The translations under genes and the position numbers were made by a program. A DNA stretch of 64,000 bases, from contig NIVC01000696.1 of assembly GCA_002269645.1 (NCBI GenBank), forward strand, positions 372,001 to 436,000, given 5' to 3'. This DNA is from Macrostomum lignano. Taxonomy: Eukaryota. Positions 4,287-32,500 of the stretch are shown here, piece after piece. The first letter of the stretch is position 1. Every line of letters begins with the position of its first letter. Below the pieces are notes generated by a model, which worked only from the letters and a program-made list of their open reading frames with translations, was not told the DNA's origin and did not search any database.

Positions 4287-4629
4287 GGGGTCCATGAGAA
4301 TTGCCCGCAGCAGACGAATTGCCCGCCAAGATTTGCCCGCGAGCGAATTGCCCGCCGAGGTAGCAATGCTTTTTTCCTGCAACGCGGCAGATTTTGTCTG
4401 CATTGAATCCCCAATGCTTAGTAAGTCTTAATAAAGAGATTTACCCGATCAAACGCTTTGATAGTAACTGCATATCAATTGCATATTTTTTTCTGGGGGG
4501 CATTGCAGACAGAAATCAGCTGCCAAATGCGCTGTAGGAAAAAAGGCATTGCAGGCAAACCTCGGCGGGAAATACTCGGCGGGCAAATCGCTCGCAGGCA
4601 ATTCGTCTGCGGGCATTTCTCGTGCTCCC
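4287..4629. mobile_element. MITE (~343 bp) with imperfect TIRs and a near-perfect 8-bp TSD
   Basis: Left arm carries repeated (a/t)ttgcccgc motifs (4295-4365), mirrored as gcgggcaa(a/t) at 4560-4622. Flanks are aaacacga (4279-4286) and aaatacga (4630-4637). Confidence 0.7.
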
Positions 4630-6974: not shown

Positions 6975-7203
6975 CGCGACACCTTCCAGATAAGCACAAG
7001 CGCTGCAACCTGACTGTCCTATAAAACTTTGAAGTTGCTTCTGATGCAGTGAATTGCTTCTAAGTCTATTCTAAAATATAAATCAGCATTCTCCCCTGAA
7101 GATAAGGAGTGCGCTAAACTCGCAGCCCGTTATTTCAATTGCATGCTTTTGCAGTTAACTTTCAAAACTAAATCGCCTTTTACATCTATCTGTCTATTTA
7201 CAA

Positions 7204-7667
<464 letters not shown>

Positions 7668-8258
7668 ATCTATCGATCGATTAGGCTTAGAGCAAATACT
7701 TGTGTACTCATCCTATTACTTTATTTCTTAGAACCTTTAAGAAGACGAGCAGATAGAGTGGACGCGGAGTACAGTGGCTCAGAAGCCAGTTTTTTACCAT
7801 ATTTTCGAATTTCAGCAGGAATAAACGATGAGTTTAAAAGTAGATGAAGGTCAAACTCAGTGCTGGTGCAGGGGTGCTCACTGGCTGCTCAAGTACGAGC
7901 TAGAAGCAGACAGAGTGACGAGTGCGCAACGCAGTTAACTACGTAATCGTAGTTTGTTGACATTTTTGATGGTTTTGCTGTTTTCCTGTCTGCGGCTCCG
8001 AAATTCATACTCAGCTCTAGCATGGTTGAGTTGTGCATGCAAAACCGTGAATAAATAGAATAGTGTTATTTTTTGGTGAGATCGTGGCTGGGCAGGCGCT
8101 TCTCTCAGCAGAGTGGAGCAGTGGTTTCAGTTCATAGACGACTCTGAGGTGTTTCCAATATCAGGTATAATTGAATAAGCGTGAGTAAAATTCCAAACTC
8201 TAAAAATATTTATACTCGTCCAATTATCTCGTCAAACGCACTACTGGAAATTACTGGC

Positions 8259-9528
8259 GCTGTAGCTGGGCCCTCGCTTACAGAGCCCTCAGGCTCGTCA
8301 CAGGGTGACTGACCGGAGCTGTATCTGGGCCCTCGCTTACAGAGCCCTCGGGCTCGTCACAGGGTGACTGACCGGAGCTGTAGCTGGGCCCTCGCTTGCA
8401 GAGCCCTCGGGCTCGTCACAGGGTGACTGACCGGAGCTGTAGCTGGGCCCTCGCTTACAGAGCCCTCGGGCTCGTCACAGGGTGACTGACCGGAGCTGTA
8501 GCTGGGCCCTCGCTTACAGAGCCCTCGGGCTCGTCACAGGGTGACTGACCGGAGCTGTAGCTGGGCCCTCGCTTACAGAGCCCTCGGGCTCGTCACAGGG
8601 TGACTGACCGGAGCTGTAGCTGGGCCCTCGCTTACAGAGCCCTCGGGCTCGTCACAGGGTGACTGACCGGAGCTGTAGCTGGGCCCTCGCTTACAGAGCC
8701 CTCGGGCTCGTCACAGGGTGACTGACCGGAGCTGTAGCTGGGCCCTCGCTTGCAGAGCCCTCGGGCTCGTCACAGGGTGACTTACCGGAGCTGTAGCTGG
8801 GCCCTCGCTTACAGAGCCCTCGGGCTCGTCACAGGGTGACTGACCGGAGCTGTAGCTGGGCCCTCGCTTACAGAGCCCTCGGGCTCGTCACAGGGTGACT
8901 GACCGGAGCTGTAGCTGGGCCCTCGCTTACAGAGCCCTCGGGCTCGTCACAGGGTGACTGACCGGAGCTGTAGCTGGGCCCTCGCTTACAGAGCCCTCGG
9001 GCTCGTCACAGGGTGACTGACCGGAGCTGTAGCTGGGCCCTCGCTTACAGAGCCCTCGGGCTCGTCACAGGGTGACTGACCGGAGCTGTAGCTGGGCCCT
9101 CGCTTACAGAGCCCTCGGGCTCGTCACAGGGTGACTGACCGGAGCTGTAGCTGGGCCCTCGCTTGCAGAGCCCTCGGGCTCGTCACAGGGTGACTGACCG
9201 GAGCTGTAGCTGGGCCCTCGCTTACAGAGCCCTCGGGCTCGTCACAGGGTGACTGACCGGAGCTGTAGCTGGGCCCTCGCTTACAGAGCCCTCGGGCTCG
9301 TCACAGGGTGACTGACCGGAGCTGTAGCTGGGCCCTCGCTTACAGAGCCCTCGGGCTCGTCACAGGGTGACTGACCGGAGCTGTAGCTGGGCCCTCGCTT
9401 ACAGAGCCCTCGGGCTCGTCACAGGGTGACTTACCGGAGCTGTAGCTGGGCCCTCGCTTGCAGAGCCCTCGGGCTCGTCACAGGGTGACTTACCGGAGCT
9501 GTAGCTGGGCCCTCGCTTGCAGAGGCCT
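8259..9528. repeat. 59-bp tandem repeat, ~21.5 highly homogeneous copies
   Basis: Unit gctgtagctgggccctcgcttacagagccctcgggctcgtcacagggtgactgaccgga starts at 8259, 8318 and so on. Confidence 0.98.
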
Positions 9529-9873
9529 CAGTCCTGGTGCAGGAAGACTTTCGGTAGCTGCAGCTGCATGGACAGAGCCCTCAGTCCCCGGAACTCCCAA
9601 GCGTGAAAGACTGCACAAAGCAGCTCTGAGATGGGACCGCATTAATAAATGGTTCGCATTCGCACGCAACCTGAGTGCCTCTCTAGGAATTTTTGCTTGC
9701 GAAAATCAAATCATGATTTATTGATGCAACAGCATGAGAACAGTTTTATTTCTCACCCGCTACTTTGGCAGTCGCAGCTGGAAATGATTGCCGCTTCTCG
9801 CGTGCAGGCGGAAATGATTTATTAATGTATAATATAATTTGCCCCCCCCCCCCTGATAACAAGTAAAGCAGGT

Positions 9874-12137: not shown

Positions 12138-13291
12138 TCAGAGCGCACTGACAGAGCCAGAGTGGCTGTTTCCCTGCCTCCTGGAGAGCCCATTGGAGTT
12201 GACGCCGCCCACTCGCGCTAGCGGCGACCCGGCCTCCGATGAGACTTCGTCGGCAAACGCGGCCACAACTCCGGCCGGGGGGCGGAAGGCGACGCAGGCC
12301 TCCTTCTCCCAGGGGTCGAGCAGGTTCGCCCGCTCCGCTGCTGACGAGGAGACCACAACGGCCGGGGCAGACGCGGAGGCGGCATCGTCAACTACGTCAC
12401 CGTCATCAGCGTCTGCCGCCTCCGCGCCGACACCACCGCGGGTGCTTAGGTAGAAGAACTCCAACACCTCAACCACGAAGGCAGCAGTGAGGCCGATGCA
12501 CAAAGAGCAGAGACCGCCGATCCGACTGAGCAAGATATTGACATCTAACGTCAACTTCTCTTTTTTCATCGTCATGTCCCAATTTCGGCGCCTAATTTTG
12601 ATGTAAGTGTAAGCGTTCTGCTGCGACAGGTACTTGGTGTACTCGCTGGACGCGATGTCGGATATGTTTCTCTTCACTCTATAGAAGAATTCGGCATCGT
12701 TCACCTGTGATTGCCGGTACAGATTTCCCCATTTGTAGTGCTCCGCTAGAGCGGCCAGCTTGCTAGACGATGGCACCCACTTAGCAATTGACAAAGCGGT
12801 CTCATATGTTGAGTAGGTGCACCTCGGCAGACAGCTGATTGAAAGGTTTCGCTTCAGCAGCTCCATATCCTCCAGGTAGTTTCCGGCGCATTGTAAGCGG
12901 CTATTGACTTGTCTCAGATAGTCCAGCCTAGTGTTGCCGTCGCCACCGCCAGTAACGTCGGTGCAGTACGGAACTTTGTTGTCAGGCATCCGCAGCACTG
13001 GCCATAAAGTTGACTGACAGCCGCAATTGTCTATAAAGTGCTTTTGAAGTTTGGCATTCACGCACTGGTGATAGTTTCCGGTGTACTTGCGCTCCAGGTG
13101 GCGCACATGTGGCTGGTTGTCCCGGCAGGCCCGCTTCGGCGTGGCCAATTTGCTCCAGCTGGTGGTGCCGTAGCTGATTTCGTTCATTCGGCCTGGCTCA
13201 ACGTTGAAGCCGCTCTGGGCGAAGTCGGGGATTGTGTTTCTCTCGTGAATCGTCACTTTGACGCCTTCACCGCGTGTTAGCACATCGTATA
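12138..13291 (-). pseudogene. 3' half of an intronless DEG/ENaC (ASIC/FaNaC-like) channel gene interrupted by the LTR element
   Basis: GVKVTIHE...P....GFNVEPG motif, Cys-rich ectodomain (CGCQ, CLPRC), and TM2 LLSRIGGLCSLCIGLTAAFVVEVLEFF. Joins in frame to 23996..24674 when the element and one TSD copy are removed. Confidence 0.9.
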
Positions 13292-13295
13292 GGAA

Positions 13296-14371
13296 TGATG
13301 TGTTCCTTATTACCAGTCCTCAACTGTAATCAAGGAACAATCACTTCTAGCTCTGTAGCTAGGCAACCCAGTAATCAAATGAAGGTATTCAATTACCTTT
13401 GAGTCCTTAAATGAGAGCTCTCGTAATAATCCTCGTCCGTAGTATCGCGATCAGTAACTTTCCTGTCCTTCAGGAAGTTTAGGCACCTGGTAACAGTTGA
13501 TCTGGTCCGTTATCTCCTTTGTCCTCTTGACTTCTTGCCGGCCGGTATCTGTAGTTCGGACCAATCGGAAGCTTCCAAATTAACAATGGGGATCCCTGCG
13601 CCAAACTGCGGTTTAATATAAGCCTACTCCTTCTAGTAGTGCCTCTATGCACTCTAGGTATGGCTCCGGAAACCACTGATAGTCTTCTAAGATCTATCAG
13701 GGGCAGTCCTTCTGGAGACTGCAACCAGTGGAGTCTAAACAGACTCAAGAGTCTCAGCAGACTCAAATAAACTCAAGTCTCAATAGACTTGAGCGAGACG
13801 TCTCAACCAACGGGCGCAAATGAGTAAGGCTTACCGCAAGAACTCGTCCACGACGCGAGTTTCTTCAGGAAGGCTTCACTAGAGCTTCCTCTTCGGAGCT
13901 TCTCTCTCTTGGAGATTTTCTGGCTCCGGGTCCGTTCCGGACCACTTGTATTTATAGGCGTTCAGACCTCTCTCGAGGTCGTACATCACTGTCTTCGCAA
14001 ATGTCAAAGGGTCACGATTCGGTGGCTGTCAAGCATGACAGGGTAGAAAGTTGCGCAACTAGTCTATTGTAAAAGCGCATGATTGGTTACCGTAGCTGGT
14101 AGACTTTGATTGGTTCATCCGGGTGCAACCCGAGTGCAAACAAAATGATGACTTGAAGGTGGGGTTTGAATTGACAGTTGTTGGTCGCACGTGATTGGGT
14201 GATTTCTAAAATTAGCATGCTCAAGGTCTCTCTCTTTCTATTGGTTAGTCAGAATATACTTATAATTCAAAGCATACCTTTATTCATGCTCTTCAACTTA
14301 CTACTGAATAAAATGTGTGAGTAGTACGTTAACACTTTTATGTCTTCTTACGGGAGGTAGAACACTCTACA
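13296..14371 (-). repeat. 3' LTR (1076 bp)
   Basis: Matches 22920-23995 at offset 9624. By eye, one mismatch (A14274 vs G23898). Confidence 0.97.
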
Positions 14372-14385
14372 AAATCTCCCATGTT
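14372..14385 (-). other. Candidate short polypurine tract
   Basis: Minus strand reads catgggagattt directly before the 3' LTR start TGTAGAG; short and imperfect. Confidence 0.4.
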
Positions 14386-14589
14386 TACAAAAAAACTCGT
14401 CCGAGTTTTAAAGAGAGGATTGAAACGCATAAAAAGTTCAAGCATGTCTTTATAATAATCATTTGTCATAAGTGTTACAGGTATTTAGTAATGGGTAGTT
14501 AAGAGCGTTGGTTATAAAAGTTATTTAAAGGTAAGTATACGCATGCAAATAAAATGTTTTTGGTTACAGTATTGACATGTGCGCCAAGA

Positions 14590-14802
14590 CTAACAATAGG
14601 CGCACTGCCGCAAACTTCTTCTACCTATCGGGCAATTCTGCCAGAGCTGAATATAATGTGAGTCGCTTGAACATTGTCCGCATATGCGATGTCTGTTTTC
14701 ACAAATAATTGGTGGCTTGACAGCCAAGTCATCAGTTAAACATATTGGGCATTCGTAGAGTTGCTGTAGTTGGGGCGCCTGTTTGGACAGTGCGTTGCCC
14801 AT
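14590..14802 (-). CDS. Element-internal 70-aa ORF: predicted N-myristoylated RING-finger (C3HC4-like) protein
   Basis: MGNALS start (Gly2, Ser6); CPIC-x(11)-CENRHRICGQC-x(12)-CPIGR, with the last ligand Cys replaced by Gly; strong Kozak context acaATGg. Lies between pol and the 3' LTR on the element's sense strand. Confidence 0.7.
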   Translation of the reverse strand: MGNALSKQAPQLQQLYECPICLTDDLAVKPPIICENRHRICGQCSSDSHYIQLWQNCPIGRRSLRQCAYC

Positions 14803-14913
14803 TGTCGTCGTCGCTTGAAGTTTGAAGTCGCTCAGATTAGTCGCCTCTTACGACAAGCTTGCGAAGCTGTAGAGCTATTCTGACCCGGTCTCTACACGGG
14901 TTGTTTTCGCAAC

Positions 14914-17900
14914 TTAACGAGGTCGCAGATTGTAGCCATGTTGCTGGTTCTCGGTTGATGTTTGTGTCTCCTCGTGTTTTGTTGCGATGTGGCGGTTCGC
15001 CGAACGCGTGCGATCAGCGTTGTCTAGTGACGGTAAAAACGTTGTCGTGTCAGTGTTGATCTTCTTTAGTCGATGAATGTGCACGTAGAATTGGTGCTGA
15101 TGAGGATCTTGCACATTGGCCAGGCGTGCCGTTGTCGGTGACGTTAGTTGGACCACTCGATATGGTCCTTTGTACTTCTGTGCGTGTTTGTGCGTCTGTT
15201 GCGGCGGATAGTGCAGGTAGACGATGTCGCCGGCTGTCAGAGTTGTCGATCTCGTGTCGGTGCCGGTGGTTAGAGCCACCTGATTGTCGATGTTGTGCTT
15301 GGCTACTTTCCATGCGAGGTGTAGTTGCGTGACGAACTTTTGAATGGACGTCGGGACTTCCACATATTGCGATGGTAGTAGTTGCTGTGCCAATAGGTTT
15401 GGCGGCTGGAAGTCTCGCCCAAACATTAGAAAGAATGGCGTATTGTCCGTTGATCGATGAATAGCGCTGTTGTAGGCCATTGTTACTGCTTGCAGATAGA
15501 TGATCCAGTCGTCCGGTTGTTGATGCGCGAAATGTGTAATCATCTCGTGTAGGTTGCGGTGAAACCTTTCAACCATGTTCGCCTTCGGATTGTAGGTCGA
15601 TGTGTAGATCTGCGTGATGTTGAGGATCTTCACCACTTGCTGAAAGAGTTGAGACGTAAACTGCGATCCATTGTCCGATGTAGGTTCTTTGGCGTACCGT
15701 ACTTGCAGATGATGTCGTTGAAGAAACCCATTGCCACTGTCTGAGCTGTGATGTCCGGTATTGGTATGGCAATAGCAAACTTTGAGAAAATGTCCAAGGC
15801 TGTTAGGATGTAGGTGTAGGCTATGCCATGGAGACAGCTCGGTGGCAGCGGTCCGGTGATGTCGATGCTGAGACAGTCCATAGTTGTTGACTTTGGTATC
15901 GATTGTAGCTGTGGTTTTTGTCGTCGTCCTGTCTTTGATGCTGCGCATGAGTGGCAGTTGTTGCAATACTGCTTGATGTCGCCATGCATGCTTGGCCAAA
16001 AGTAGTATTGCTCCACTCTTGCAATGGTTTTGGCTGCCGACAGGTGTCCAGCGAGTGGGTTGTCGTGCAGCTCGTTGAGAATTGCCTGCCTAAACGAATA
16101 TGGCATGTAGATTTTAGGTTTGTTGTCACTCATCCAGTAGAGTCGTGACTTGTTGATTGTTAAATGTTGTCGCTGCTTGCGCAGGAATTTTCGTTCCACG
16201 GGGCTGAGCTTGATGTCCTTGTCGTTGTTTTTAACTGCTATGTAGAAGTTGTCGTGTTCCGTCTCATCCACCAATTCCTTGATGTTAGGGATTGGATGAA
16301 TGGCGTTGACTTCGTAGGCTCTTGACAGGGCGTCCGCGGCCTTGTTAGTAATTCCTGGTTTGTAGACGAGCTTGTAGTTGTAGTCCTGGATCTTGAGTGT
16401 CATCCTGATGAGTCGGTTGTTTGTTTGTCCTTTTGTAGTTACGACGTAGGTCAGCGGTGCATGATCTGTGCGTACTATCGTCTGTAATGGAGATCCATAG
16501 ATGTAGTAGTGAAACTGTCGTAGGGCGAACAGAACTCCTAGTAGTTCTCGTTCCGTAGCTGACCATTTTGTCTCATTCGGTTTAAGTGCTCGACTGACGT
16601 AGGCTATAGGTCGTTCCTTTTTGTCTTCAGTTTCCTGTAGTAGGACTGCTCCGAGTCCCGTTCCTGAGGCGTCTGTCTCGATGATGAAGGGTTTGTCGAA
16701 GTCCGGATGCTGTAGCAGTGCGTCTGATGTCAGCTGTCGTTTGATTTCGTCAAAACTTTCTTGTTGCTTTTGTGTCCAATTCTCCTGCTTCCATTTGTCG
16801 AACTTGAGCAGGTCGTACAGCGGCTTTGCTGTCTTCGCGAAGTTGGGTAAGAACTTTCGGAAGTATTGCGCAAGTCCAAGAAATGATTGGACCTTCGTTA
16901 TGCTAGTTGGCGTAGGAAACTTTTTCACTTTATCCACGTTGTCTGGGTCCGGTGAAATTCCTTTGGCTGTCACCTGATGTCCCAGGTAACGCACGTTGTC
17001 TCGGAAGAATTTGCATTTAGTTGGTTGTAGCTTAAGTCCTTGTCGTTGATAAGCGCGAGGGCCTTCTCCGTCGCTTCATAGAGTCGTTCGAAGTCTTCTC
17101 CGTAGGCCAAGATGTCGTCAACATAGTGCAACAGGTTCGTGCATCCTGCAAGCATGTATGCTGTTAGTCGGCTCATCGTTGCTGGGCTGTTGCTGAGTCC
17201 CATCGGCGATCGATTGTACTCGTATACTTGTCCATTGTAGGTTTTGAAAGCCGTGTACTGTCGTGACTCTTTCTCGATTTCAATTTGCCAAAATCCATGA
17301 CGTAGGTCGAACACTGTGAACAATTTTGCCGTGTTGAGCTTTGCTAGTAGTTCGGAGATCTTCGGTAGGCTTTGCTGATCCGTCGGTATGTACTTGTTCA
17401 GTAGTCTGAAGTCACATACGAGTCGTCTTTCGTTAGTCTCCTTCTTTTGTACCAGAGACGGTGAGGAGTAGCTGAAATGGCTTTGCTGATGATGCCGTGT
17501 TTAGCATTTTGTCGATAATTCATCGAAGTGTGTTGCAGATGCTTGGCGATCGGGTACGGTTTGCACTGAATTGGTTCCGTGTGCGGCAGAAGTTTGATTT
17601 CCTGTTTGATGTCCTTGGCTCGTCCGATGTCGTAGTCATGGTGGCAGAAAGCGTCGTTGTACTTCCACAACAGCTGTCGAACTTTCCTCTTTTGCTGTTC
17701 CGTAATCGGGCTGTCATCCAAATTGATCTTCTTTTGAAATTCTTCCTCTGTTAGTCGTGGAGTCGCTTGCTCAATCAGCATAACCGATGCTTGGGTGTTG
17801 AGATGACCGATGCACATTCCTTGTCGTAGATGAACCGTTTCTGTGTTCGGGTTGAATATTTGTACTGGCAGCTGTTTATCTTTTGCAACCAGTACTAGTG

Positions 17901-18636
17901 CCGTAGGCATCATAATTTGGTGTTTAGCCGTGACTCTTCTGTTTGGGTCGAATATCATTGCTTCCTCCGTTGCGTTAGTTGCCTTTGCCTTTATCCAGCA
18001 GGCGCTCTCCGGTTGGATGATGACATCTTGTTGCAATGTTACTTTTGGTAGTACTCGGATCTGGTTGATCAATGGTTGTTCTACCGAGTCGATCTTGAAC
18101 GTTTGCTTATTGAAGTCGAAGGTCAATGGTAGTCGAAGCTGCTTGAACGTGTCGATGCCAACAATAACGTCCTGGTTTGGGAGTCTGTCGATGACGTACG
18201 TTGGAACTGTCAAGTGTTTATTAGCGATTCTTAAATCAATGTCGGCTTTTCCCAGAATGTTTAGCGAATGTCCTCCTGCTCCTGCAACTGCGATTGTTGC
18301 TGGCCGTAGAGCAAGTCGTAGCTTGTTGCACAGTTGTTTTGATATAACTGTGATGGAGCTGCCGGAATCGAGTAGCGCTCGACATGGTAGATTGTTGATT
18401 ACCACTTGAGCCATGGCTTTGCCAATTTCGGCGTGTAGAGTACATACGTAGTTCTCTGGCCATTTTGGGTCTTGCTGTTCTGCTTGATAGTTGGGTGGTT
18501 GTATTCTTGGTGCCGTTGGTGTTGTCGGAATCGATGGATATAGCCGCGTTGCTAGTGTCGGTTGCCCTTGAACCTCACGATGTGCAGTTTCTGTTAGTTC
18601 TAAACTGTTGTCGCCTTCCGTTGTCGTTCTTTGCAT
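14914..18636 (-). CDS. pol: Pol polyprotein (aspartic protease, RT, RNase H, integrase), with frame breaks in this sequence
   Basis: ALLDSGSSITVI (protease); RRLVCDFRLLN, DLRHGFWQI and YVDD (RT); ETDAS, ERELL and RTDH (RNase H); HHCC, IDITGPL, SDNGSQF and VERF (integrase); C-terminal YNLRPR. Spread over ORF-track segments 17398..18945, 16970..17323, 15630..16994 and 14914..15999. Confidence 0.95.
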
Positions 18637-21600
18637 TATGGCATTAACTGTCTTCTTAGCTTTGGACAAGTTTGACTGAAGCACCGTACGATCGACGAAA
18701 TGATGAAGATTGCCGTGACAATCCACACAATGCAAGCACCGTAGAAGATGAATCCTTGATAGAGACTGCCTCTTCCATTGAGCAGCTCCCAGAAGCTGTT
18801 TGTCCAAAATGATTTGATGGCGCTGTCCATTGAAACAAGGACGGGAAATCTTCCTGTCCCGGTTCCTTTGTCCTTTCTTGTGAACAGCTGGTGAATCATC
18901 TTGCGTTGGGTGATGAACGCTTGCAAGAAGTCGTTGATCGTCCATCCTGGTGTTATCTCGTCAAGTTGGATATCGGCGAATGGCGTATACTTCGTTCTGT
19001 TGAATCGGATTTTCAAATCCTCCATGTCGTAGTTTTCGTCGACGATTACTTCCGGTTCTGTGATGTTTGCTGTCGTTCCAGTTGTTTTGATGACGTGTAG
19101 TGCATTGTCCAGTTGATAATAGTTTGCTGCCGTGGTGCAAGGTCTCGGTATTGCGGTGCCAACGATGATGTTGTGTACCGTGTCCAAGAATCCCTGAATT
19201 CGTTTTCCTTCGTAGAACGCTTCAATCCTTGGCTTGTCGTAGCAGGTTGTTGACGTGTTCGACGGCAAGATGTTAAAGTGCTGTATCGGCGTGCACTTGT
19301 ATATCAACAGATGCTCGTATATTGGAACTGCCAAAACGTTCGTCATTCCGGTGATTTTACGAAAAGTCATCGTAGGGTTGACATAGTAGTTTTGTCTGGC
19401 ATAATTTAAGTTGATTGCGTGCATTTTGCAAGTTAGCTGGACCAGTGTTCGATGCAAGTGGTTTAACTGGTTGTGTAGATTGTGATCCAAAGCCGTTATC
19501 TTTGCTGACAGTAGTCGGTTTGACACCAGTTTGGGACGTTCGATGTCTCGTCGTCGTCTGTTCTGTTGTTCCTGCTGTTGATACGTTCCGTTGATGATCG
19601 CCAGAAAGGTTTGTTTGTCGTCTTCTTTTACGTAGACTGGTATCTCTTGTTCCGAGATGAATAGTGTCTTGTCTGTATCCTTGCATTTCAGTTTTTGCTC
19701 GACTGGTTTCTTTTGAAATGTCAGTGCCAAGTCTCCTGACTTTGCCAAAAACGTGTTTGACAGTAGACCTCCTTCAACTGTGTGATACTTTTGAAGCTTG
19801 CAGTCAATTTCCGGCTCAACTTCCCACGCGAAGAAGTATTGTCGTGACTTAGATGGTTCTTCATATCGTGAGTCGCCTCTGCGTATTATTTGCCATCGAT
19901 AGTCTTGATGATATGTTGGACTCAACGGTAAGCTGTATAGTTCCTCATTCCGCAGTATCGGCGTTGGACACCATCCTTTGCTGTATCGGCAGTCACTTAA
20001 TTGCAGTTGTAGCGACTCCATTTTTTCAAAAGGATTGTGGTAGAATGGAATATTCCTGATTAGGTAACTGTTTCGTGTCATGTAGTTAGTCCATGCTTCC
20101 GAAAAGTGTACATATCGTCCGTTTGCTGAGTTCTTCGTTCGGTAAAGTTGTGCCTCCCCCACTTTCTCATCCGGTTCTAGCTGACCATCCTTTGAGAACA
20201 GTGTTTGGTTCCATTGTAGACATTCAGCGTGCGACACATGTAGTTCGTGTTGCCAAAATCGAATTCTGTTCCATTGTCCTCGCCAAACTTTTTCCACTAG
20301 GTGCTTGTCTCTAAAGCACACTATTCCGAGTTGTCGATGCTTCTTGATGTTAGCTTTGTAGAGATCAATTGTGATCTTCTTTGGCTTCGTCTGATTTGTC
20401 TTGAAGTAGCTGCATTTGATGTCGGTTGGTATCTTGTAGATCATCGGTTGGATATGCGCATCCGTTGGACATATCATTGGTTTCTCCATTGCTGTTGCTT
20501 TGGTGACTACTGCCGTCAGTAGTATTATGATGATCCAGAATATCCAGAGTCGCCATTTTCTGAACGTTGCCGTTGTCTTTGCTGGCATTGGCTGCGGCTG
20601 CCATTCGTTATCTTCTACGTCCGCATCGTATTCTTCCTCTTGTTCCATTGGCGTTTCCGAGCGCAAGGCATCCGATTCGTTCCGCTGCTTGTCGTCTTCA
20701 TCGTTTTCTTCCTTGCTTTCTTCCGATGTTGTAGTTGTGTCACTCCATTGTCTGCGGTACCTCACTTCGGCCTTGTAGTCGACCGTTTGGATGTAGGCTT
20801 CACCATTTCGTTTATAGCGGATCTCGTAGCATTGATCGCTGTCGGAGCTTAGATTTCTTTCTTCCATTCCTTTGTGCCTTCCGTCTTCATGTTCTTTGTC
20901 GGCGGCTTGGTTGTCATCAGCGTCATTCTGCATCTCATAATCGTGATCGCTGCTTTCTTCTTGCTGTTCTTCTTCCATCTCCGCATTTCCGTCGTTGCTT
21001 CTTTCGTTGTCATCCTTCGTTGCCGGTTCCTTGTCGTTGCCTTTGTTTGTTTCTTCTTTTCTTTCATTGATGTCGCTTGGCAATGTTTTTTCTGTGCTCA
21101 CTTCTGCCTTTTCTTCTTCGCTGTCAATGTTAGTTTCTTTCATTTCGACCATGCTGATGTTTTTTGTCTTTTCGCTGCTCTCCGCATCGAGCCAGTCGAT
21201 TTCATTGATAGTGAAGTCCATTTCTAAGTCGTCTATCGTGAAGACTTGCTGCTCTTGCTGTTCGCTTTCCGGTGTGTACGTGATGGCGTTTGCATATCGT
21301 TGCATCGCTTGCGTTGGTTGCTTGGGCATGTATCTGGTGTTTCGCGGTCTGTAGCCATTGTTTCCGAAGCGTTTCGTGTTTTGCTGCTGCCAATTTTGAT
21401 GTTGTTGCCATGGTTTTTGCGGCTTCCTTCTGTTGAATGGCTGTCGCTGCATGTCATTTCTTGTTGACCGATGAGGACAATGTATTTGGTAGTGTCCTTC
21501 TCGTCCGCAGTAATAGCATCTGGCTTGGGCTCGTTCATTTCGTCTTTTTTGTTCGGCGATAACGGCTGTTTGATGTTGCATCAATTTGTTTAGTTGCTGT

Positions 21601-22223
21601 GTCAGTTTCTGCACTTCTGTGTTGCCGGTTGTCATTAGTGGAGCGCTTGCTTCCCACTGCATTCCGCACCGTAAAAGGTCTTCCTCGGTTTCAATGTTTT
21701 CGCGTAGAAGTCTATCTCGGAGTGACGGCTGTGCATTGTTTATTACGTGCAGAATCAGATTTTGTTCGCGATCCATCAATCGCTGTCGCTCTCTAGCGGC
21801 TAATTCTGCCGCACCCAGAGGTGGTTGGTCTGCAGCTGGCAGTGTTGGCTGATGCAGTGCCTTAATTATCTGACGGATGTCGTCCACAAAGGTCAGGAAG
21901 GATTCGGTTGGCTGCATCCTTCTGTTATGCAACTTGTGCAGTAGCACTGATCTGTTTGTGCCACAGCGGTTGAAATGTGCGCGCAGTTGAATGATTAATG
22001 CTGGGTAGTTTTGCTGTGTTGCCGCGTCTAGTTTACCATAAATCTCTCGTGCAGTGCCTTGGAGGAGTGGTGGCAACAGTTGCGCTTTTTCTGGATTTTG
22101 TAGGTTGTATTCCCTACATACCAGGTCAAAATGATCAACAAAGGTGTTAAAGTCTTTTTCCATAGAAAAGGTGCCAACTGTCTCTTTGATATCTCTGTGC
22201 ACCGTTGGATTGCGCCGCGCCAT
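18636..22223 (-). CDS. 1195-aa Gag-Env fusion ORF: Gypsy Gag, CCHC, acidic linker, internal signal anchor, class III (gB-like) fusion glycoprotein, TM
   Basis: Gag N-terminus FVDHFDLVC...KAQLLPPLLQGTAREIY; CYYCGREGHYQIHC at 21477-21518; hydrophobic RKWRLWIFWIIIILLTAVVTKA at ~20495-20560; RRRR furin site at 19548-19559; gB-like motifs; six N-glycosylation sequons; C-terminal TM at ~18690-18765. No stop codon across the ORF. Confidence 0.9.
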   Translation of the reverse strand: MARRNPTVHRDIKETVGTFSMEKDFNTFVDHFDLVCREYNLQNPEKAQLLPPLLQGTAREIYGKLDAATQQNYPALIIQLRAHFNRCGTNRSVLLHKLHNRRMQPTESFLTFVDDIRQIIKALHQPTLPAADQPPLGAAELAARERQRLMDREQNLILHVINNAQPSLRDRLLRENIETEEDLLRCGMQWEASAPLMTTGNTEVQKLTQQLNKLMQHQTAVIAEQKRRNERAQARCYYCGREGHYQIHCPHRSTRNDMQRQPFNRRKPQKPWQQHQNWQQQNTKRFGNNGYRPRNTRYMPKQPTQAMQRYANAITYTPESEQQEQQVFTIDDLEMDFTINEIDWLDAESSEKTKNISMVEMKETNIDSEEEKAEVSTEKTLPSDINERKEETNKGNDKEPATKDDNERSNDGNAEMEEEQQEESSDHDYEMQNDADDNQAADKEHEDGRHKGMEERNLSSDSDQCYEIRYKRNGEAYIQTVDYKAEVRYRRQWSDTTTTSEESKEENDEDDKQRNESDALRSETPMEQEEEYDADVEDNEWQPQPMPAKTTATFRKWRLWIFWIIIILLTAVVTKATAMEKPMICPTDAHIQPMIYKIPTDIKCSYFKTNQTKPKKITIDLYKANIKKHRQLGIVCFRDKHLVEKVWRGQWNRIRFWQHELHVSHAECLQWNQTLFSKDGQLEPDEKVGEAQLYRTKNSANGRYVHFSEAWTNYMTRNSYLIRNIPFYHNPFEKMESLQLQLSDCRYSKGWCPTPILRNEELYSLPLSPTYHQDYRWQIIRRGDSRYEEPSKSRQYFFAWEVEPEIDCKLQKYHTVEGGLLSNTFLAKSGDLALTFQKKPVEQKLKCKDTDKTLFISEQEIPVYVKEDDKQTFLAIINGTYQQQEQQNRRRRDIERPKLVSNRLLSAKITALDHNLHNQLNHLHRTLVQLTCKMHAINLNYARQNYYVNPTMTFRKITGMTNVLAVPIYEHLLIYKCTPIQHFNILPSNTSTTCYDKPRIEAFYEGKRIQGFLDTVHNIIVGTAIPRPCTTAANYYQLDNALHVIKTTGTTANITEPEVIVDENYDMEDLKIRFNRTKYTPFADIQLDEITPGWTINDFLQAFITQRKMIHQLFTRKDKGTGTGRFPVLVSMDSAIKSFWTNSFWELLNGRGSLYQGFIFYGACIVWIVTAIFIISSIVRCFSQTCPKLRRQLMP

Positions 22224-22899
22224 GTTGTTGATGGGATAGAACGGTAGCTCTAGGTCTGGGTCGATTTGTAATGGATCTTCCAGTGTGGTGTTTCTTTCGA
22301 AATAAACTTCGGTTGTAACTGATTGTCTCGCGGCGCTTTTGACACCTCAATTTGTTATGTCTGACCTTGAACGGAATTCGGCTTTTGGCTGCTTTTTCTG
22401 ACCTCTTATTCGCTGGCTGATTTTCGCACTTATGCGGCGTCCCGCAAAGTGTATCTTTAAAGTGCTTGAAGTGCAGCTGCTTCTTGCTTTTTTCAAAGGC
22501 CTTTCTTGTCTTCGTGACGTGCCTTGTCACGTTTTATCAAATTTCGGTTTGTTTTAGCTTTCGTCAAGTGTTTTTAATTTCGGTTTTGTTTTAATGTGTA
22601 TTGATTATTTTTCGGTTTGTTTTCAGTGTACCGGACGTTGTTTTCGGTTTTGTTTAAGGTTTACTCTTGCTCGAGCTCGTTAAAAACAAAAATTTAACAC
22701 GCGTGCTCAAACGTTACTCAAAATTGACAGGTACTCAAGCCTGTATATCTAAACTTTTACTCGAGTTTCAAATCGTACAAAAATCGAAAAGTGTCGGAAA
22801 GTGTTACCTTTAACACGTGCGCGCAAAATTAATGAAGTCGCTCTTTCGTCACTTTACAATAGCTTGGCCAGGCTATTGCTCAAAAGTTTGAGTAGTGCC

Positions 22900-22917
22900 G
22901 AGAGGGCGAGATCACCA
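22900..22917 (-). other. Primer-binding site TGGTGATCTCGCCCTCTC, 2 nt inside the 5' LTR
   Basis: Begins TGG (complement of tRNA CCA) after an AT spacer following the LTR end ...CACATCA. Confidence 0.75.
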
Positions 22918-22919
22918 AT

Positions 22920-23995
22920 TGATGTGTTCCTTATTACCAGTCCTCAACTGTAATCAAGGAACAATCACTTCTAGCTCTGTAGCTAGGCAACCCAGTAATC
23001 AAATGAAGGTATTCAATTACCTTTGAGTCCTTAAATGAGAGCTCTCGTAATAATCCTCGTCCGTAGTATCGCGATCAGTAACTTTCCTGTCCTTCAGGAA
23101 GTTTAGGCACCTGGTAACAGTTGATCTGGTCCGTTATCTCCTTTGTCCTCTTGACTTCTTGCCGGCCGGTATCTGTAGTTCGGACCAATCGGAAGCTTCC
23201 AAATTAACAATGGGGATCCCTGCGCCAAACTGCGGTTTAATATAAGCCTACTCCTTCTAGTAGTGCCTCTATGCACTCTAGGTATGGCTCCGGAAACCAC
23301 TGATAGTCTTCTAAGATCTATCAGGGGCAGTCCTTCTGGAGACTGCAACCAGTGGAGTCTAAACAGACTCAAGAGTCTCAGCAGACTCAAATAAACTCAA
23401 GTCTCAATAGACTTGAGCGAGACGTCTCAACCAACGGGCGCAAATGAGTAAGGCTTACCGCAAGAACTCGTCCACGACGCGAGTTTCTTCAGGAAGGCTT
23501 CACTAGAGCTTCCTCTTCGGAGCTTCTCTCTCTTGGAGATTTTCTGGCTCCGGGTCCGTTCCGGACCACTTGTATTTATAGGCGTTCAGACCTCTCTCGA
23601 GGTCGTACATCACTGTCTTCGCAAATGTCAAAGGGTCACGATTCGGTGGCTGTCAAGCATGACAGGGTAGAAAGTTGCGCAACTAGTCTATTGTAAAAGC
23701 GCATGATTGGTTACCGTAGCTGGTAGACTTTGATTGGTTCATCCGGGTGCAACCCGAGTGCAAACAAAATGATGACTTGAAGGTGGGGTTTGAATTGACA
23801 GTTGTTGGTCGCACGTGATTGGGTGATTTCTAAAATTAGCATGCTCAAGGTCTCTCTCTTTCTATTGGTTAGTCAGAATATACTTATAATTCAAAGCGTA
23901 CCTTTATTCATGCTCTTCAACTTACTACTGAATAAAATGTGTGAGTAGTACGTTAACACTTTTATGTCTTCTTACGGGAGGTAGAACACTCTACA
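22920..23995 (-). repeat. 5' LTR (1076 bp)
   Basis: Minus strand TGTAGAG...CACATCA; near-identical to 13296-14371. Confidence 0.97.
23573..23870 (-). promoter_or_regulatory. LTR U3 promoter: TATAAATA box with four upstream CCAAT boxes
   Basis: Plus-strand tatttata at 23573-23580 (13949-13956 in the 3' LTR), and four attgg motifs at ~23705, ~23732, ~23817 and ~23864. Confidence 0.6.
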
Positions 23996-24674
23996 GGAAG
24001 CTGCGACTCATCTGGGGCAGCTTTTCCATCGGCACAAGCGACATGATAACGATAATAGATTCGAACTCCCGACTGAATGTGACATTGTCTGCGTCCACTG
24101 TAAAACAGTTGAAGAACTCACCGTAGGAGAAAAGGCGTACCGAGACCTGGATGCCTGGGATCTCGCAGTTGTCGGCAATGTACTGCTGGCCGCCCATAAC
24201 CACCACACAGAAGAAGAGGCTGCTGCGATTGTGACCGATCATTATTGTCTCGTTAAACGGCAACTGCTGATAGTAGGTTTCGATATTGTCGTATGCGTAC
24301 ATCAGTTTCAAGTTTTCCAGATTATTAGCTAGTGCCAGCCCAGTGACGTCCTTGAGCATCTTTTGGAATCGCAGGGGACTCATGACAGCGCCTGAGTCCC
24401 ACAAGTTCTGTGCCTCGTAGCTGAACGGGCTGTGCGCGCACAGAGTGAACGAAGGAAACTCGGGCTTAACGTCGAACGCAGTGGACGTGTGCCAGGCAGT
24501 GTCGTAGTTGAGAAAATCCTTCACTAGGAAGGCGGACACGATCACCAGCACCAGCGTCATCACAACAACAAACGATAGCCAGAGTATCTTTATAAACGGC
24601 GACCGGGCCTTTAGGATTTTCTGCACGCCCCTAATTGAGGAGCCTTCGCAGAAAAGTCTCCAACGGCTGGCCAT
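23996..24674 (-). pseudogene. 5' half of the interrupted DEG/ENaC gene; now stops at an in-frame TAG just inside the LTR
   Basis: MASRWRLFCEGSSIRG (pre-TM1 F...S.HG-like motif) and TM1 ILWLSFVVVMTLVLVIVSAFLV. Reconstructed junction reads MSRSFL-YDVLTRGEGVKV; the restored ORF is 1833 nt (610 aa). Confidence 0.9.
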
Positions 24675-27600
24675 TGTCCGACAGATTGTTCGGCACTCAG
24701 TGCCAGCAGCAGTCGCAGTCGCCGCCACCGTTGCCGCTTGAGATCGATCACCTGACGGATCGGGTGAAGCCACCAGTGCGACTGCAGGGACACGGCCTGG
24801 GTTTAAATACAGAGTAGGGTGGGCGGGTTTGAATGGCTGACTGATCAAAAAAGAAGTACGTAAGCAGAGTTTTCTGAATTGTAGTCCCAGAGTTTGAGAC
24901 GCATTGGGTCATTGATATTCTCATGATGCATGATTGGTCGGCACACGGTAGCCAGTAGGTGTTGCCAAGAAAGAGGCGGCACTTGATTGAGAAGCAGACT
25001 ACCCTATGGCTATTCGTCCCTTACAACAGTGGTAATGAAGTTTTCTCAACTAACAGTTTTTTATAGTCATATATTCTCTTTTTTATTCACTGCTGCGAAT
25101 TTAACTGCGCCAAAAAAGCCTTCAAGCGGACACTTCGAAAGAGTAGTGGCTGCACCAGAAAAAAACAGGATGAATTTAAACTTAAATTCAATACAGTATC
25201 AACAGTTTATAAATAAACAGTTTTATCAGATACAAATTCAAATGATTTGAAAGCATGCGAAATTCAGAAATTCAACTGTAGGGGCAGATTTCTGTTTGTC
25301 GGCGCCGTCAGAGAAACAGATAATGGAAACGAGATGCTTCAATATTTAATGTTAATAACATTACCTCTGGAATGGAGATAATTTTTTAAAAGCCCTGCAC
25401 CTCCAAGTTAGTAATGCAGTGCCGTCTTTTCCTTGCAGAAAATATCTTATTTGACCATTACGAGCTAAAACAAAAAAATCAGAGCTACACATCCAGCAAT
25501 GCGGAGCTCGGATCTGTGGCGCTGGAATTGAATTCCCATCCAGAGCATGTGGAGTTTGTATGTACGAGAAAATTTCCCATCCTTGCCGACACACCAAAGG
25601 CATTACTAATTGATGGTGCGTCTCCGTCCTTCGTCGCAGTAGGACAGGCAAGTGTAGACAGCCAGCCTACTTGTTAAAGACAGCTTGCTGTTGGCAGTCC
25701 AGGGCAAAACTCATGGGAGCTAAGAAGCTCATCTAGAGCAGGGAATTCTAACTCAAGATTGATTGCGTCCCAGCAGTTTATAAGCTGAGTGGAAATTTAG
25801 TTTGGGTAGATATTTGCACTATATCATTATCAATTCAAAGTTCTTTTAGCAGCGTCTTCCTTTAAAAAACCTCCCCCTCGACAGAACTCCAATTCCGAAT
25901 CAGGCAGCCAAAGTACGAGCGGAGGGCGTCTCTCCTTTTGCTTTTGCTTCTCCCGACTGCCCCCATCCGAGCTTTGCCTTTGGATTCTCAAGAATCCATT
26001 TAGTTGTGAAAGCTCCCAGATTAGTTTATCTTGTCCTACTGGTATCTAATTTCGTTGCTTAGTAGTGAGTACTTTCCTAGAAATTTTCCAATCTAAGACA
26101 AGTCTTCGAGCTCAGCGAGGCCCTGCTGAGCAGGATAGGCTTTCATTGAAGCACTGAATTTTTTATTGCATTGTCTCGATTGTGTGCCACCATCTGACCA
26201 GAAATCCCGAGAAATCAGCCGAATTCGGGAGAAGCAGCTGCTTCAGGTGGACAAATACGAGGCCTCTATATTCTACATCAATTTCCAATCATCTTCTAGA
26301 AAGAAATCCGCTTGCACGTCTCAGCGAAAGGCTTCGGGTAGTAGTATAAATATTGAGCATCCCCTTAATCCCAGACATTTCCCACTCTCCACTCTGCTAC
26401 ACTGAATGCAGTATCGATCTGGTGCACTTTTTGCCATTTTCCAAAGAGAAGCGGCCAACTGCGTTCTCACTCTCATTTCGTCCGCGTTTGCCTAAAAAGG
26501 TGTTTTCTGCCTTCTGCCTCGCTTTTCTCACCCAGCCTTCTAGAAGCAAAAGAAAATTTTAATTGCAAAGCCACCCGCTGACAAGAGCTGAGGCTGCAGG
26601 TCTTTTTATTCTGCCTCGCTTTGCATCTTTCTTTGTTGCTGCAGACGTCTGCGCAGCTTTAAAGCAGGTGTTGAGAGCGGAGGACGCCCCAAATGAAGTT
26701 TTGGAGTTCTCCCTACCAGCTACTGCAGCAGGTTCTGCCGCAACTGCCCCAAGTCCTACGCTATGCGTGTAGCGCAATCTTTGCTGTCAGACTGTTGCAA
26801 ATGAGCATGCAGAGGCCCGGGGTGGAATAAAACCCAGTATTTTAGGGGGAAGCATTATTTCTGTTTGACGTAAGGAGACAATGAGTTCTGTCTCTTTTAA
26901 TGGCGCTTGCAATAAAAAATGTCAAAGGTGTTCAGATCGCAGCCGAAACTAGCGGGCACGGTATCCATGCACTCACGTTCAATTAATTCCATTCCGCTCA
27001 TTCTGTACAGAACTAAAACAATTGTCAATGGTCCTAATTTCACTTCAACTCCTAAGTTGATAGTTGAATTCAACCATAGTTGAGATTTCCCATTTGGCAG
27101 CTGTAGATTTGGTTTTGACCATAGACATAGACGCAAAAAGGGCAAATTCGGCCATAGACATCAGCACAAAGAAGGATGCCGGTAGCATCCTCTATCATAG
27201 AATAGAAATCATGCTTAAAGACCGGCTTCCATTCAGTAAAGAGCAAAATTTAAACAGAGAGCAAATACACAACAGCACTACTTGCTTTTAGAACGCTGAT
27301 GCATCCGCCCCTATCCAAGCTAAAGAGAGAGAGTTGCCATATTCGGAATTAATTTTGTCACCTTCGGGTTGAAAAGGTATTTTGGCCTTTAATCACTTTT
27401 TCATTGTTAATAATTTTTTCCTTATTTTAAATCAGGATAAAATACGACTACAAGGCAGGCCTCGGTAAGCAGGATGTCCCTGGTCAAAAGACGCTTAGTT
27501 TATGACATAGTCTATCAGTTTAGTACTAAACCGAGTACCCCAACTCAAGGAGTTCTATAGTTAGCATCTGGAGTAAAATATAAAAATGCCTTCGTGATTT

Positions 27601-29581: not shown

Positions 29582-32500
29582 CTACTGCTTCTGCGGTCTC
29601 TGCTTCTCGATTGACGCCGCCTGGTCGGCGCCCGCTCCTGAATTGGTCAATTTGGTGCTGCAAAACTTTTCTACGTCATTGAGATTGCTCAGAAAATAAA
29701 TTAAACTCAAGTGAAGATTAGCTAACTTCGCTTTTTTCAAGTCGCAGGTGAATCTTCTGCCGCTTTCTATGCCTAAATCACAGATAAAGGGAGAAGGGAC
29801 TAAAGAAAGAACTTGATGAAGTGGGTGAAAATTTTCTGATTGAAACCTGACGGACCACTTACCGTCAGCTCCAGCTTCCGCCGTTTGCTGTTGCCTTTTG
29901 TTGCGGCTGGCGTCGTGTCCCCCGCCGCCATTGTCGCAGCTGCCGCCGCGGCCGCTGTCATCGTTGGAGCCGTCTGTGGACCGGAGGCTGGCAAAGTCTG
30001 GCGGAGGCGGGCTTTCCCGCTGCTGCTTGTAGAAGAGGCTGCGGCTCTGCTGGGTTCAGTGTGACAAGACGGGCATTGCGTGGGACCGACTGCATAGGGT
30101 TTATGGTTTCAATGACTGCCGTTAAACAAATAGGCTGGAATATTGGATAAATTTAACTCGCAGGCGCTCTGTTCTACTCATAGTATGCATTCGCAATATC
30201 GAATTAAAAATCAAAAAATTACTCATACTTCTGCAACAACGGCTAGATAAGAATTGCTTTTTGGTCAACTTAAAAAACTTTCCCTAAACTTCGCCATGAC
30301 ACTTTATTTAATCCGCTGCTATTTTGTTCCAGCAAATTTAATATGAAAGACATGACAGTCATGACGTTGGCCTAATGAATAATATACAAGTGAATTCAAG
30401 CAGGTAACTTTTCTCCTGACCTGACGGTGCGCAGCCTGTCTGCCTGTCATCGGGACGCTGGCCTCATCGTCCTCAAATTCTTGGCGGGCTGTCGGGCCTC
30501 GGCTGAACAGAGGACGCCGGGTTTGGCTCCTGCCCGATGCAGCGCCTGCGGCTGAGGGAATGCGAATTGAAGTGCCGGTTTGACATCCCCACTGTTTTTT
30601 GTTGATAAAAATAATATAAATATAATAACTGACTACACCTGCCCTAATGGCCAGATGTGCAACCGACAGCTCAGCCGCCGCTATTGCGTGGCGTCACCTG
30701 AAGGCTGCGTACGGCTGTTCAGTCCAAGGACTGGGGGGGGGGTCGCCACACACACCCTCAATTACCCCAGCTAATGCTGGCACCCATTTTACAGCTGGGT
30801 GAACTGAAGCAATGCAGAGTTAAGTGTCTTGCTCAAGGACACAAATTGTTCCGAGTGGGTCGAGAATCGAACCTCCGACATTTCAGTCGCGAGTTATACG
30901 GGTTTACTTCAGACACTACTAAAAGTAGCATTTAATTATTCATGCACAATACTTTATTTGAGCAATGCAGTCAGAATCAATAGGCGAACAAAGATCTGGA
31001 CAAGCCGGCGTTAGGAAGAATGCTGTATTTTGACATGGCCATTACGCTTTGTGCTGTGGAGTTGTAATTTGGCATGGCCGTTATGCTCTGTGCTGTGGAG
31101 TTGTAATTTGGCATGGCCGTTATGCTCTGTGCTGTGGAGTTGTAATTTGGCATGGCCGTTATGCTCTGTGCTGTGGAGTTGTAATTTGGCATGGCCGTTA
31201 TGCTCTGTGCTGTGGAGTTGTAATTTGGCATGGCCGTTATGCTCTGTGCTGTGGAGTTGTAATTTGGCATGGCCGTTATGCTCTGTGCTGTGGAGTTGTA
31301 ATTTCGCATGGCCGTTATGCTCTGTGCTGTGGAGTTGTAATTTGGCATGGCCGTTATGCTCTGTGCTGTGGAGTTGTAATTTGGCATGGCCGTTATGCTC
31401 TGTGCTGTGGAGTTGTAATTTCGCATGGCCGTTATGCTCTGTGCTGTGGAGTTGTAATTTGGCATGGCCGTTATGCTCTGTGCTGTGGAGTTGTAATTTC
31501 GCATGGCCGTTATGCTCTGTGCTGTGGAGTTGTAATTTCGCATGGCCGTTTTGCTCTGTCCTATAGCTGTACTAAAAGGCTAAAGATAAGAACGATCACT
31601 GCCAATTTTCCAGCTTATTTGCCTACCTATCCGCGTAGAAGCCGAGAATTTAAGCTTCATCTTTTCACTAATTAGAACAGATACGCCAATTTCAGTCCCA
31701 ATGCCCTGCTCCATGCTAATCTCTTCATTAACCTGGAAGGGCATTAGCGTTAGTGAAGCACCCGGATAAGCGCCATGGGTGCATTCCGCTGCTTAATCCC
31801 GCGCCCATGTCTGTTTGCCGCTAATTCTGATTGCTAGCTGCAGGAGACGAGCAGGTCGAAAGCAGCTCTCCCGGTGCCCAGATAATCCAGTCATACGAAA
31901 CAGAGTTTAATCAGTAAGTCGCCCCTAGCACCGGAAGGCATCCTCGATATGAGCGCTTTCATGGAGACTGAATATCATTTTGAAAAAGTCATTCCCAGCC
32001 CTGTAATTCCTGCGATTACTGGCTCTAAAACCTGATGGACGGATTGCTGGGCAAACTGGAGTCTGAAGTACACTATATTTTTCAGATTCCCGCAGAATGT
32101 TTAAAATTTACAGATCTCTGAAGCTATTTAGTTACATTTAAGATGCATATTTAAGATACATATAAATCCACTTTCCTCTTAATTCAAATACAGTTGTGGC
32201 AAATCTGGACAGCTGGAATCTGAACTCACCAATGCAGCGGCGGCGGCACGAGATGACCAGCAAGCCCGTGACGAGAACCAGCAGGAAGGCTGCAGTCGCG
32301 AACACGAGTCCCGCGATCACAATAAAGCCATCGGTGCCCGCTGTTCCTGGGCCACTGACGTCCCCGTCAGAGTGAAGCACTCGCTCGGTTCGAACGAATT
32401 CTACATCGAGCGACTGAACATCTTCGAGCGGAGGCTGACCGAGATCTCGCACCATCAGAGTCAGCCGAATTGGCTGGGCGGCGAGTTCTGGCGCCAACGG

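Follow-up and report, generated by a model that had tools for sequence, protein, structure and literature searches.

A Ty3/gypsy retrotransposon family of Macrostomum lignano encoding Gag, a herpesvirus gB-like glycoprotein and Pol in one reading frame

Introduction

A stretch of 64,000 nucleotides of Macrostomum lignano (assembly GCA_002269645.1, contig NIVC01000696.1, positions 372,001 to 436,000), referred to below as the window, carries a long terminal repeat (LTR) retrotransposon at 13296-23995, on the minus strand as are all features of the element and of its host gene given here. A preliminary description of this locus had proposed that Gag is fused in frame to a class III fusogen resembling herpesvirus glycoprotein B (gB), that the fusion protein ends at 18636 and that pol follows as a separate unit. 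The question raised by the locus is whether this Gag-Env fusion is the product of the element or a part of a longer one. Analyses of the window and of its genomic copies showed that the family has its coding regions in one frame of about 2,440-2,500 amino acids (aa), which comprises, in order, Gag, a linker, a first hydrophobic segment (segment 1), the gB-type ectodomain, a second hydrophobic segment (segment 2), protease (PR), reverse transcriptase (RT), RNase H (RH) and integrase (IN). [quoted passage not shown]

The 1195-aa frame of the window

A single frame of 1195 aa, free of stops as previously stated, runs from the ATG at 22223 to the stop codon at 18636-18638; when the interior of the element was shuffled 200 times, no stop-free frame exceeded 228 codons. 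The capsid-like region of Gag (aa 1-230, 21534-22223) matched no capsid family in Pfam and was therefore called from its position ahead of a zinc knuckle, from the knuckle itself and from its relatives; it was 46% identical to the relative protein P0003, matched the N-terminus of P0059 (E 2e-10) and begins with no myristoylation motif (P-numbers denote relative proteins and L-numbers genomic loci or copies). The single CCHC knuckle of the nucleocapsid (aa 236-249) was located at 21477-21518, where it had been placed before, and scored under the cut-off of Pfam zf-CCHC (E 0.12). It is followed by a linker (20559-21461), first basic and then acidic (33% Asp and Glu in aa 321-545), which differs between subfamilies yet stays in frame.

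The preliminary description had recognized a hydrophobic segment at the C-terminus, and this segment 2 was indeed found at aa 1157-1175 (18687-18755), where it would act as Env anchor and stop-transfer sequence; another one between Gag and the glycoprotein had been missed. This segment 1 (about aa 559-579, 20490-20549) is basic on its Gag side and ends in an A-x-A of the signal peptidase type, so that it may be an internal signal cleaved at that point. Between the two segments lies the gB-type ectodomain (aa 579-1156, 18756-20489). The furin-type sequence RRRR (aa 889-892, 19548-19559) and the N-x-S/T sequons reported earlier were present, six of the ten sequons falling within the ectodomain, as were the motifs on which the likeness to gB had been based, EKVWRG (aa 644-649), LTC (aa 930-932), NPTMTF (aa 949-954) and CYDKPRI (aa 994-1000).

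One frame from Gag to integrase

Searches of the genome, in which 71 of 260 candidates were scored, gave 75 env matches as a lower bound, and 12 of the 75 lie in open frames of at least 2,370 aa. The CCHC knuckle, the furin site and the PR, RT and RNase H motifs shared one frame in each of ten fetched regions, which were chosen for long frames and are thus not an unbiased count; counted from the initial Met, these frames are 2,439-2,498 aa long, one being clipped at the region edge and another stopping at an early point within integrase. Of the 30 best loci in the genome, 18 have the knuckle and the start of env in a common frame, 22 the Env anchor and the protease, and 15 everything from the knuckle through the protease; in a subfamily with a longer linker, the gag-env break positions are not reliably placed. 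The join of env to pol is also present in the UniRef protein P0002, named for M. lignano, which links the C-terminal third of Env to Pol and is 95% identical over that third and 99% identical over the RT-RNase H of a sister copy. The order of the family frame agrees with the earlier placement of env between gag and pol, and the 18 loci in frame, together with overlapping gap-free contigs that cross the region, bear out the absence of a stop between gag and env. The claim that Gag and Env form a fusion protein and pol a unit of its own did not hold, as env is joined to pol as well.

In the window, pol (PR-RT-RNase H-integrase with a GPY motif, 14914-18660) is divided into four frame pieces by breaks near 17,450-17,530 and 15,680, and the frame break at 18636-18665 makes the apparent C-terminus of the 1195-aa frame. 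The protein end at 18636 was therefore not upheld, because it follows a break near 18,661 that is a defect of the window's copy: the break was found in only one of 29 other genomic copies (L002) and was absent from 28. At 18,661 and 15,681, contigs of all four sequencing runs carry the other form exclusively; being contigs, these data drop rare variants. Six further gaps at 17,454-17,531, within an 80-bp stretch of RT, are private to the window, none of the 29 copies having them. Since the two LTRs are 99.9% identical despite these private gaps, an error in the consensus is more likely than decay of the copy.

These data bear on the alternative that the element makes a Gag-Env protein ending at 18636 and obtains pol through a programmed frameshift or by another route. 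Such a reading would take the window at face value, and it could call on L002 with the same break, on the eight of 30 loci in which the Env anchor and the protease are not in one frame and on five of 29 copies that stop soon after the anchor at another common place. The distribution of the 18,661 break among copies and runs and the private RT gaps beside LTRs that differ at 1 of 1076 sites speak for consensus error instead, and no in-frame slippery heptamer for a programmed -1 frameshift was common to the three copies scanned; we consider the alternative very improbable. The single Gag-Env-Pol frame has evidence to contend with nonetheless. Fifteen of the 30 best loci are broken somewhere between the knuckle and the protease, and L004, L005, L006, L016 and L028 have in common another one-base gap, close to 18,615, which is either a systematic error or the mark of a defective sublineage with Gag-Env only; given this gap and the break of L002, some Gag-Env-only copies may be real.

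A gB-like class III glycoprotein

A Pfam search of the glycoprotein gave Monjiviricetes_fusion under its cut-off (E 3.2e-5). A HMMER search with Env identified 51 relatives, and a word-based search retrieved just two proteins among 3750 candidates. A profile was built from a 39-row alignment of the ectodomain that included three genomic copies and 35 of the 51 HMMER relatives. Searched against the PDB, it matched herpesvirus gB only (23 of 23 sequences, 17 with E < 1e-5), the best match being EBV gp110 (E 1.9e-14), with an alignment spanning central helix, NPT motif and domain IV.

The AlphaFold model of the ectodomain (pLDDT 73.9, pTM 0.48) has the class III features, namely domain I hairpins, a long central helix of 47 residues (aa 902-948) and a domain IV beta crown. 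The RRRR sequence lies in a low-confidence loop just ahead of this helix, and VWRGQW, a putative fusion loop, is carried at the tip (aa 644-651) of a long hairpin (model strands 57-72 and 75-85). Foldseek returned HSV-1 gB as the top match (E 2.4e-21, TM-score 0.46, rmsd 17.8), and a second structural aligner superposed 421 residues on HSV gB with Z 12.7 and rmsd 7.1 A. Among predicted viral structures, nyami-, chu- and rhabdo-like G proteins and gB were recovered with E 1e-25 to 1e-13. Because the PDB profile search, the model and the structural alignments agree, the glycoprotein was assigned to class III, as the preliminary description had proposed from motifs; the search of an AlphaFold model against gB and viral G that it had suggested did recover that fold. 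Herpesvirus gB and the Monjiviricetes/nyamivirus G share the domain layout and fold with the window's fusogen at 10-16% identity and rmsd of about 7 A, and, unlike herpesvirus gB, the fusogen of the window is embedded in a polyprotein and has no partner glycoproteins.

Class of the element and its insertion site

The 5' LTR (22920-23995) and the 3' LTR (13296-14371, preceded by a short purine-rich tract) are each 1076 bp long with TG...CA ends, and they are identical at 1075 of 1076 sites. A tRNA primer-binding site (PBS), TGGTGATCTCGC, lies 2 nt past the LTR at 22906-22917; the 12-mer is also present in loci L032, L035 and L036, and no tRNA gene that would name the primer occurs within the 64-kb window. 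Pfam searches of the frames downstream of env identified Asp_protease_2, RVT_1, RT_RNaseH_2, Integrase_H2C2 and rve, in the order PR-RT-RNase H-integrase with a GPY motif, and the named RT neighbours are gypsy-type. With its LTRs, target-site duplication, PBS and Ty3-type domains, the element belongs to the Ty3/gypsy LTR retrotransposons (Metaviridae). The comparison with BEL elements made in the preliminary description was thus not sustained. BEL/Pao (Belpaoviridae) was rejected on Pfam domains, with neither Peptidase_A17 nor DUF5641 found, and on the presence of one CCHC knuckle instead of three; by contrast, the relative protein P0049 does carry Pao-type features. The genome contains 42 LTR matches, a lower bound, and the window's LTR contains no heat-shock elements of the kind described in PMC12801592.

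The element is bounded by a 4-bp target-site duplication (13292-13295 and 23996-23999) and sits inside a coding exon of an ENaC/DEG host gene, which it splits into an upstream part at 23996-24908 (Pfam ASC, E 2.1e-13) and a downstream part at 12138-13295 (Pfam ASC, E 2.8e-29). Three close copies of this gene region were found in the genome, at least one of them with an empty site; in the sister gene copy L041 the empty site has an open frame (26 of 26 bases). The two flanks are also joined in contigs of three of the four sequencing runs, and the insertion looks polymorphic among the runs. Since the LTRs are nearly identical, the 4-bp duplication is present and the empty site occurs in the sister gene copy and in three of four runs, the insertion is considered very recent.

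Selection on env and age of the arrangement

The ratio of nonsynonymous to synonymous substitution rates (dN/dS) of env was 0.04-0.09 in three of four comparisons, the fourth being saturated, against 0.01-0.02 for Gag and 0.03-0.06 for Pol; the linker, at 57% identity, gave about 0.35. As judged from these substitution rates, env is under purifying selection.

The same gene order was found in a sister family whose Env is 64% identical, in another M. lignano family (P0005, Env 29% identical), in the distant relatives P0039, P0047, P0051, P0057, P0058 and P0059 and in the nematode protein P0015. The three best single-RT neighbours, P0057-P0059 (40-42% identity), all have a glycoprotein ahead of the protease. 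In a quick RT tree, 13 rows with env in the middle needed 4 changes, compared with a mean of 12 in shuffles, none of the 500 reaching so low a count; the tree comprised 64 of 126 rows and no named reference elements, P0005 stood on a long branch, the env status of pol-only rows was not known, and the topology is compatible with one or several origins. The arrangement with env in the middle is old. The preliminary description had inferred a capture of env between gag and pol; a recent capture by the window's element is unlikely, because the closest RT relatives share the order with a very divergent Env. A chuvirus or nyamivirus glycoprotein as the recent source would accord with the sub-threshold Monjiviricetes_fusion match and with nyami- and rhabdo-like G proteins as top viral fold matches, but the low identity to viral proteins (9-14%) and the shared order in the sister family, P0005 and the nearest RT relatives make it barely credible.

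Further observations were made on the family and its relatives. The subfamilies are mosaic, in that env and pol are 91-99% identical while the linker (57%), the 5' leader, the 3' region and the LTR (74-99%) vary independently; the pattern was seen over window positions 20559-21461, the LTRs and loci L031-L040, and it suggests recombination between copies. Contigs C2447, C669, C1130, C2121 and C87 of genome G000 contain copies in tandem or in clusters, spaced by about 9.7-15 kb and accompanied by additional copies of an accessory ORF; these are possible tandem arrays or piRNA-cluster-like regions. P0005 (cluster members P0173 and P0174) is annotated as a host gene of 2,852 aa and has Gag, Env and Pol in one chain. 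The related polyproteins P0027, P0039, P0051, P0057, P0058 and P0008 carry extra domains, which are two or three proteases, Ig after integrase, a ubiquitin-like stretch, or NADAR before Env.

Accessory open reading frames after pol

The stub of an accessory open reading frame (ORF), 70 aa long, lies at 14590-14802; it opens with MG-x3-S, and its Cys and His residues form a RING-like pattern. In other subfamilies there are two ORFs with two Cys/His clusters each, ORF-A of 222 aa and ORF-B of 210-212 aa, located on the minus strand at 1331-1996 and 628-1257 in L033 and at 1241-1906 and 548-1183 in L038. The accessory ORF had 104 genomic matches. Comparison of L033 with L038 gave dN/dS of 0.09 for ORF-A and 0.19 for ORF-B, values that speak of purifying selection, and the MG-x3-S start of ORF-A, an N-myristoylation-type motif, is kept at 73% identity. 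Pfam gave Sina_RING/zf-RING_2 below threshold only, no homologue was found at E<=0.01 among 38 candidates, and the leads from an atlas were < 0.9. The window's subfamily is evidently mobile with the stub alone, and an essential cis role for the accessory ORF is therefore disfavoured; other copies could supply its function. A thin literature search retrieved no description of RING-type accessory ORFs in LTR/gypsy elements; accessory ORFs are common in rotifer elements, with no mention of RING or ubiquitin in the available text (PMC5408684).

Other features of the window

Tandem repeat arrays occur at 7092-7700 (period 8 bp), 8135-9673 (59 bp), 30907-31679 (39 bp), 38392-38900 (30 bp), 39852-41462 (16 bp) and 45593-46564 (39 bp). 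Inverted-repeat pairs of 52-88 bp bracketing 200-500 bp at 4310-4610, 49064-49679 and 61623-62297 are possibly miniature DNA transposons.

Discussion

The novelty that the preliminary description had implied for the arrangement was not confirmed, as GAG-ENV-POL elements whose Env is of the HSV/gB type have been published, one from M. lignano included (PMC13524379). According to the available text of that paper, errantiviruses of Nematoda, Bryozoa and Platyhelminthes have HSV/gB-type Env only and the order GAG-ENV-POL, they are not monophyletic, and the ectodomain may lie between two transmembrane segments; nine flatworm elements are tabulated, the M. lignano one with 16 copies. The window's element shares with them the gene order, a gB-type Env between two hydrophobic segments, a Ty3/gypsy pol, the LTRs and the multicopy state, and our quick RT tree likewise splits them. 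The published rows of Schmidtea Env domains I-II are, by eye, unlike the window's Env.

The tabulated element, Platyhelminthes_Rhabditophora_Mlig_errantivirus_2, is from the same species, of ENV_HSV type, with ENV-POL order and the identical PBS 12-mer (PMC13524379). Its LTR-to-LTR spacing is 9,727; the window's is 9,624, and that between the tandem copies L004/L005 is 9,729. The 16 near-identical copies of the tabulated element may be set beside a block of 12 equal-scoring copies found here. The LTR lengths differ, about 864 bp as against 1076 bp. As the comparison was made by table entries, and the PBS is also present in the 64%-identical sister family, the listed element could be that sister family or another subfamily; the kind of element is already published, and the window's family is probably the listed one. 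In the available text of the paper and its preprint the terms "polyprotein" and "single ORF" are not used, "three ORFs" are mentioned and no accessory ORFs are stated; the figure supplements and deposited files may state either. The main text of the M. lignano LTR family survey, as far as available, does not mention an envelope or glycoprotein (PMC12801592).

Two other groups invite comparison. BEL/Pao elements with env, such as the mosquito elements with chuvirus-like G and Atlas virus, are likewise retroelements with a captured fusogen; available descriptions give them env after pol, a Pao-type protease and three CCHC knuckles, whereas the window has one knuckle and Ty3-type domains. In nematode Atlas virus there is one Gag-Pol-Env polyprotein, and Env is class II (10.64898/2026.03.22.711591). 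The Panagrolaimus protein P0015, with a gag-env-pol build, was among the Env matches, and its group is separate from the window's family in the RT tree. The nematode endogenous retroviruses (NERVs), from another host phylum, reportedly have a continuous gag-env-pro-pol ORF, a nyamivirus-like env and small extra ORFs. Their env stands before pol in a metavirus, as it does here (Sacco et al. 2022, doi 10.1099/jgv.0.001739).

The single frame suggests how its product might be made. The genomic RNA would be translated at the endoplasmic reticulum as one polyprotein, its Gag part remaining cytosolic. Segment 1 would act as an internal signal, with signal peptidase liberating the N-terminus of the ectodomain, which would be glycosylated in the lumen on its six sequons and cleaved by furin. 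At segment 2, a stop-transfer sequence in this scheme, the chain would return to the cytosol with Pol initially tethered to the Env tail, and the element's own protease would then free Pol and trim the linker from Gag. Capsid, fusogen and enzymes would in this way be co-produced on one membrane, which could serve as the site for budding of enveloped particles; if infectious, such particles could move the element between cells, for example from soma to germline. Alphavirus and flavivirus polyproteins follow the same logic of capsid, signal and glycoprotein.

The predicted topology is based on hydropathy and charge. In the two M. lignano families compared, segment 1 has a basic flank towards Gag (+4 vs -1 or -2) and segment 2 a basic flank towards Pol (+3 or +4 vs +1). 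Motifs of the form V/A-N-A-I, like protease sites, stand on both sides of env in the window's family and again at the RH-IN border; as processing sites they were set aside, since the sister family L035 has not retained them after the anchor.

Several points stand against the scheme or limit it. The charge rule was found for segment 1 in 14 of 20 relatives and for segment 2 in just 9 of 19, counts that include several misplaced automatic segment picks. The domain arrangement of the fusogen is uncertain, with TM-scores < 0.5 and a pTM of 0.48 for the model. Herpesvirus gB requires partner glycoproteins (PMC13524379), and these are absent from the element. Nothing was found that would control the Gag:Env:Pol ratio, neither a slippery site shared by the three copies scanned nor an env-skipping joint among those covered. 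Retroelements usually make far less Env and Pol per Gag than a 1:1:1 polyprotein would. Regulated RNA processing would resolve this problem: the DNA would have one ORF, and splicing-out of env or early polyadenylation would yield separate Gag-Pol, Gag and Env, with the polyprotein a minor product. Single-ORF copia elements are said to do so (PMC3735527, PMC5580714). No env-skipping joint was seen among 15 of 31 joints, a weak counter-argument as the contigs are of presumed RNA status, and we regard such processing as rather unlikely.

It is also conceivable that the element moves only within cells and that Env is retained for the assembly of particles, as a membrane tether or scaffold inside the cell. 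The available text of PMC13524379 contains no infectivity data for any gB-type errantivirus, and the position within a polyprotein by itself forces the frame to stay open. An open frame alone, however, does not require the dN/dS of 0.04-0.09 found for env next to a linker of about 0.35, and the furin site, the cysteines and the aromatic hairpin tip are all conserved; this alternative to an enveloped, fusion-competent particle therefore appears unlikely.

A more far-reaching joint reading draws in the accessory ORFs. The polyprotein would be threaded twice through the endoplasmic reticulum to give equal amounts of Gag, gB-type fusogen and Pol with neither frameshift nor splice control, and the separate, putatively N-myristoylated double-RING ORF-A might provide the matrix or budding function missing from the unmyristoylated Gag, so that the element would be an infectious enveloped retroelement. 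The analogy is with arenavirus Z, a matrix and budding protein. The likeness of ORF-A to Z amounts to the generic MG-x3-S start and the RING pattern, and the joint reading is speculative and decidedly unlikely to be correct as a whole.

The apparent "Gag-Env only" fusion of the window shows a Gag-Env-Pol frame cut short, with one-base contig errors as its likely source. The value of the specimen lies in a very young insertion, in dozens of copies and in strong purifying selection on env, all in a laboratory flatworm. Whether gB-type retrotransposon envelopes fuse membranes without partners is called unknown in the available text of PMC13524379, and this family makes two questions testable, namely partner-free fusion by invertebrate gB-type envelopes and the protein ratios obtained from a single Gag-Env-Pol frame. 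Should the joint reading be true, it would mean that a gB-type protein fuses membranes without gH/gL-like partners, and that a strategy like that of RNA viruses, which has not been worked out in detail in a retroelement, would be at hand in a flatworm amenable to transgenesis.

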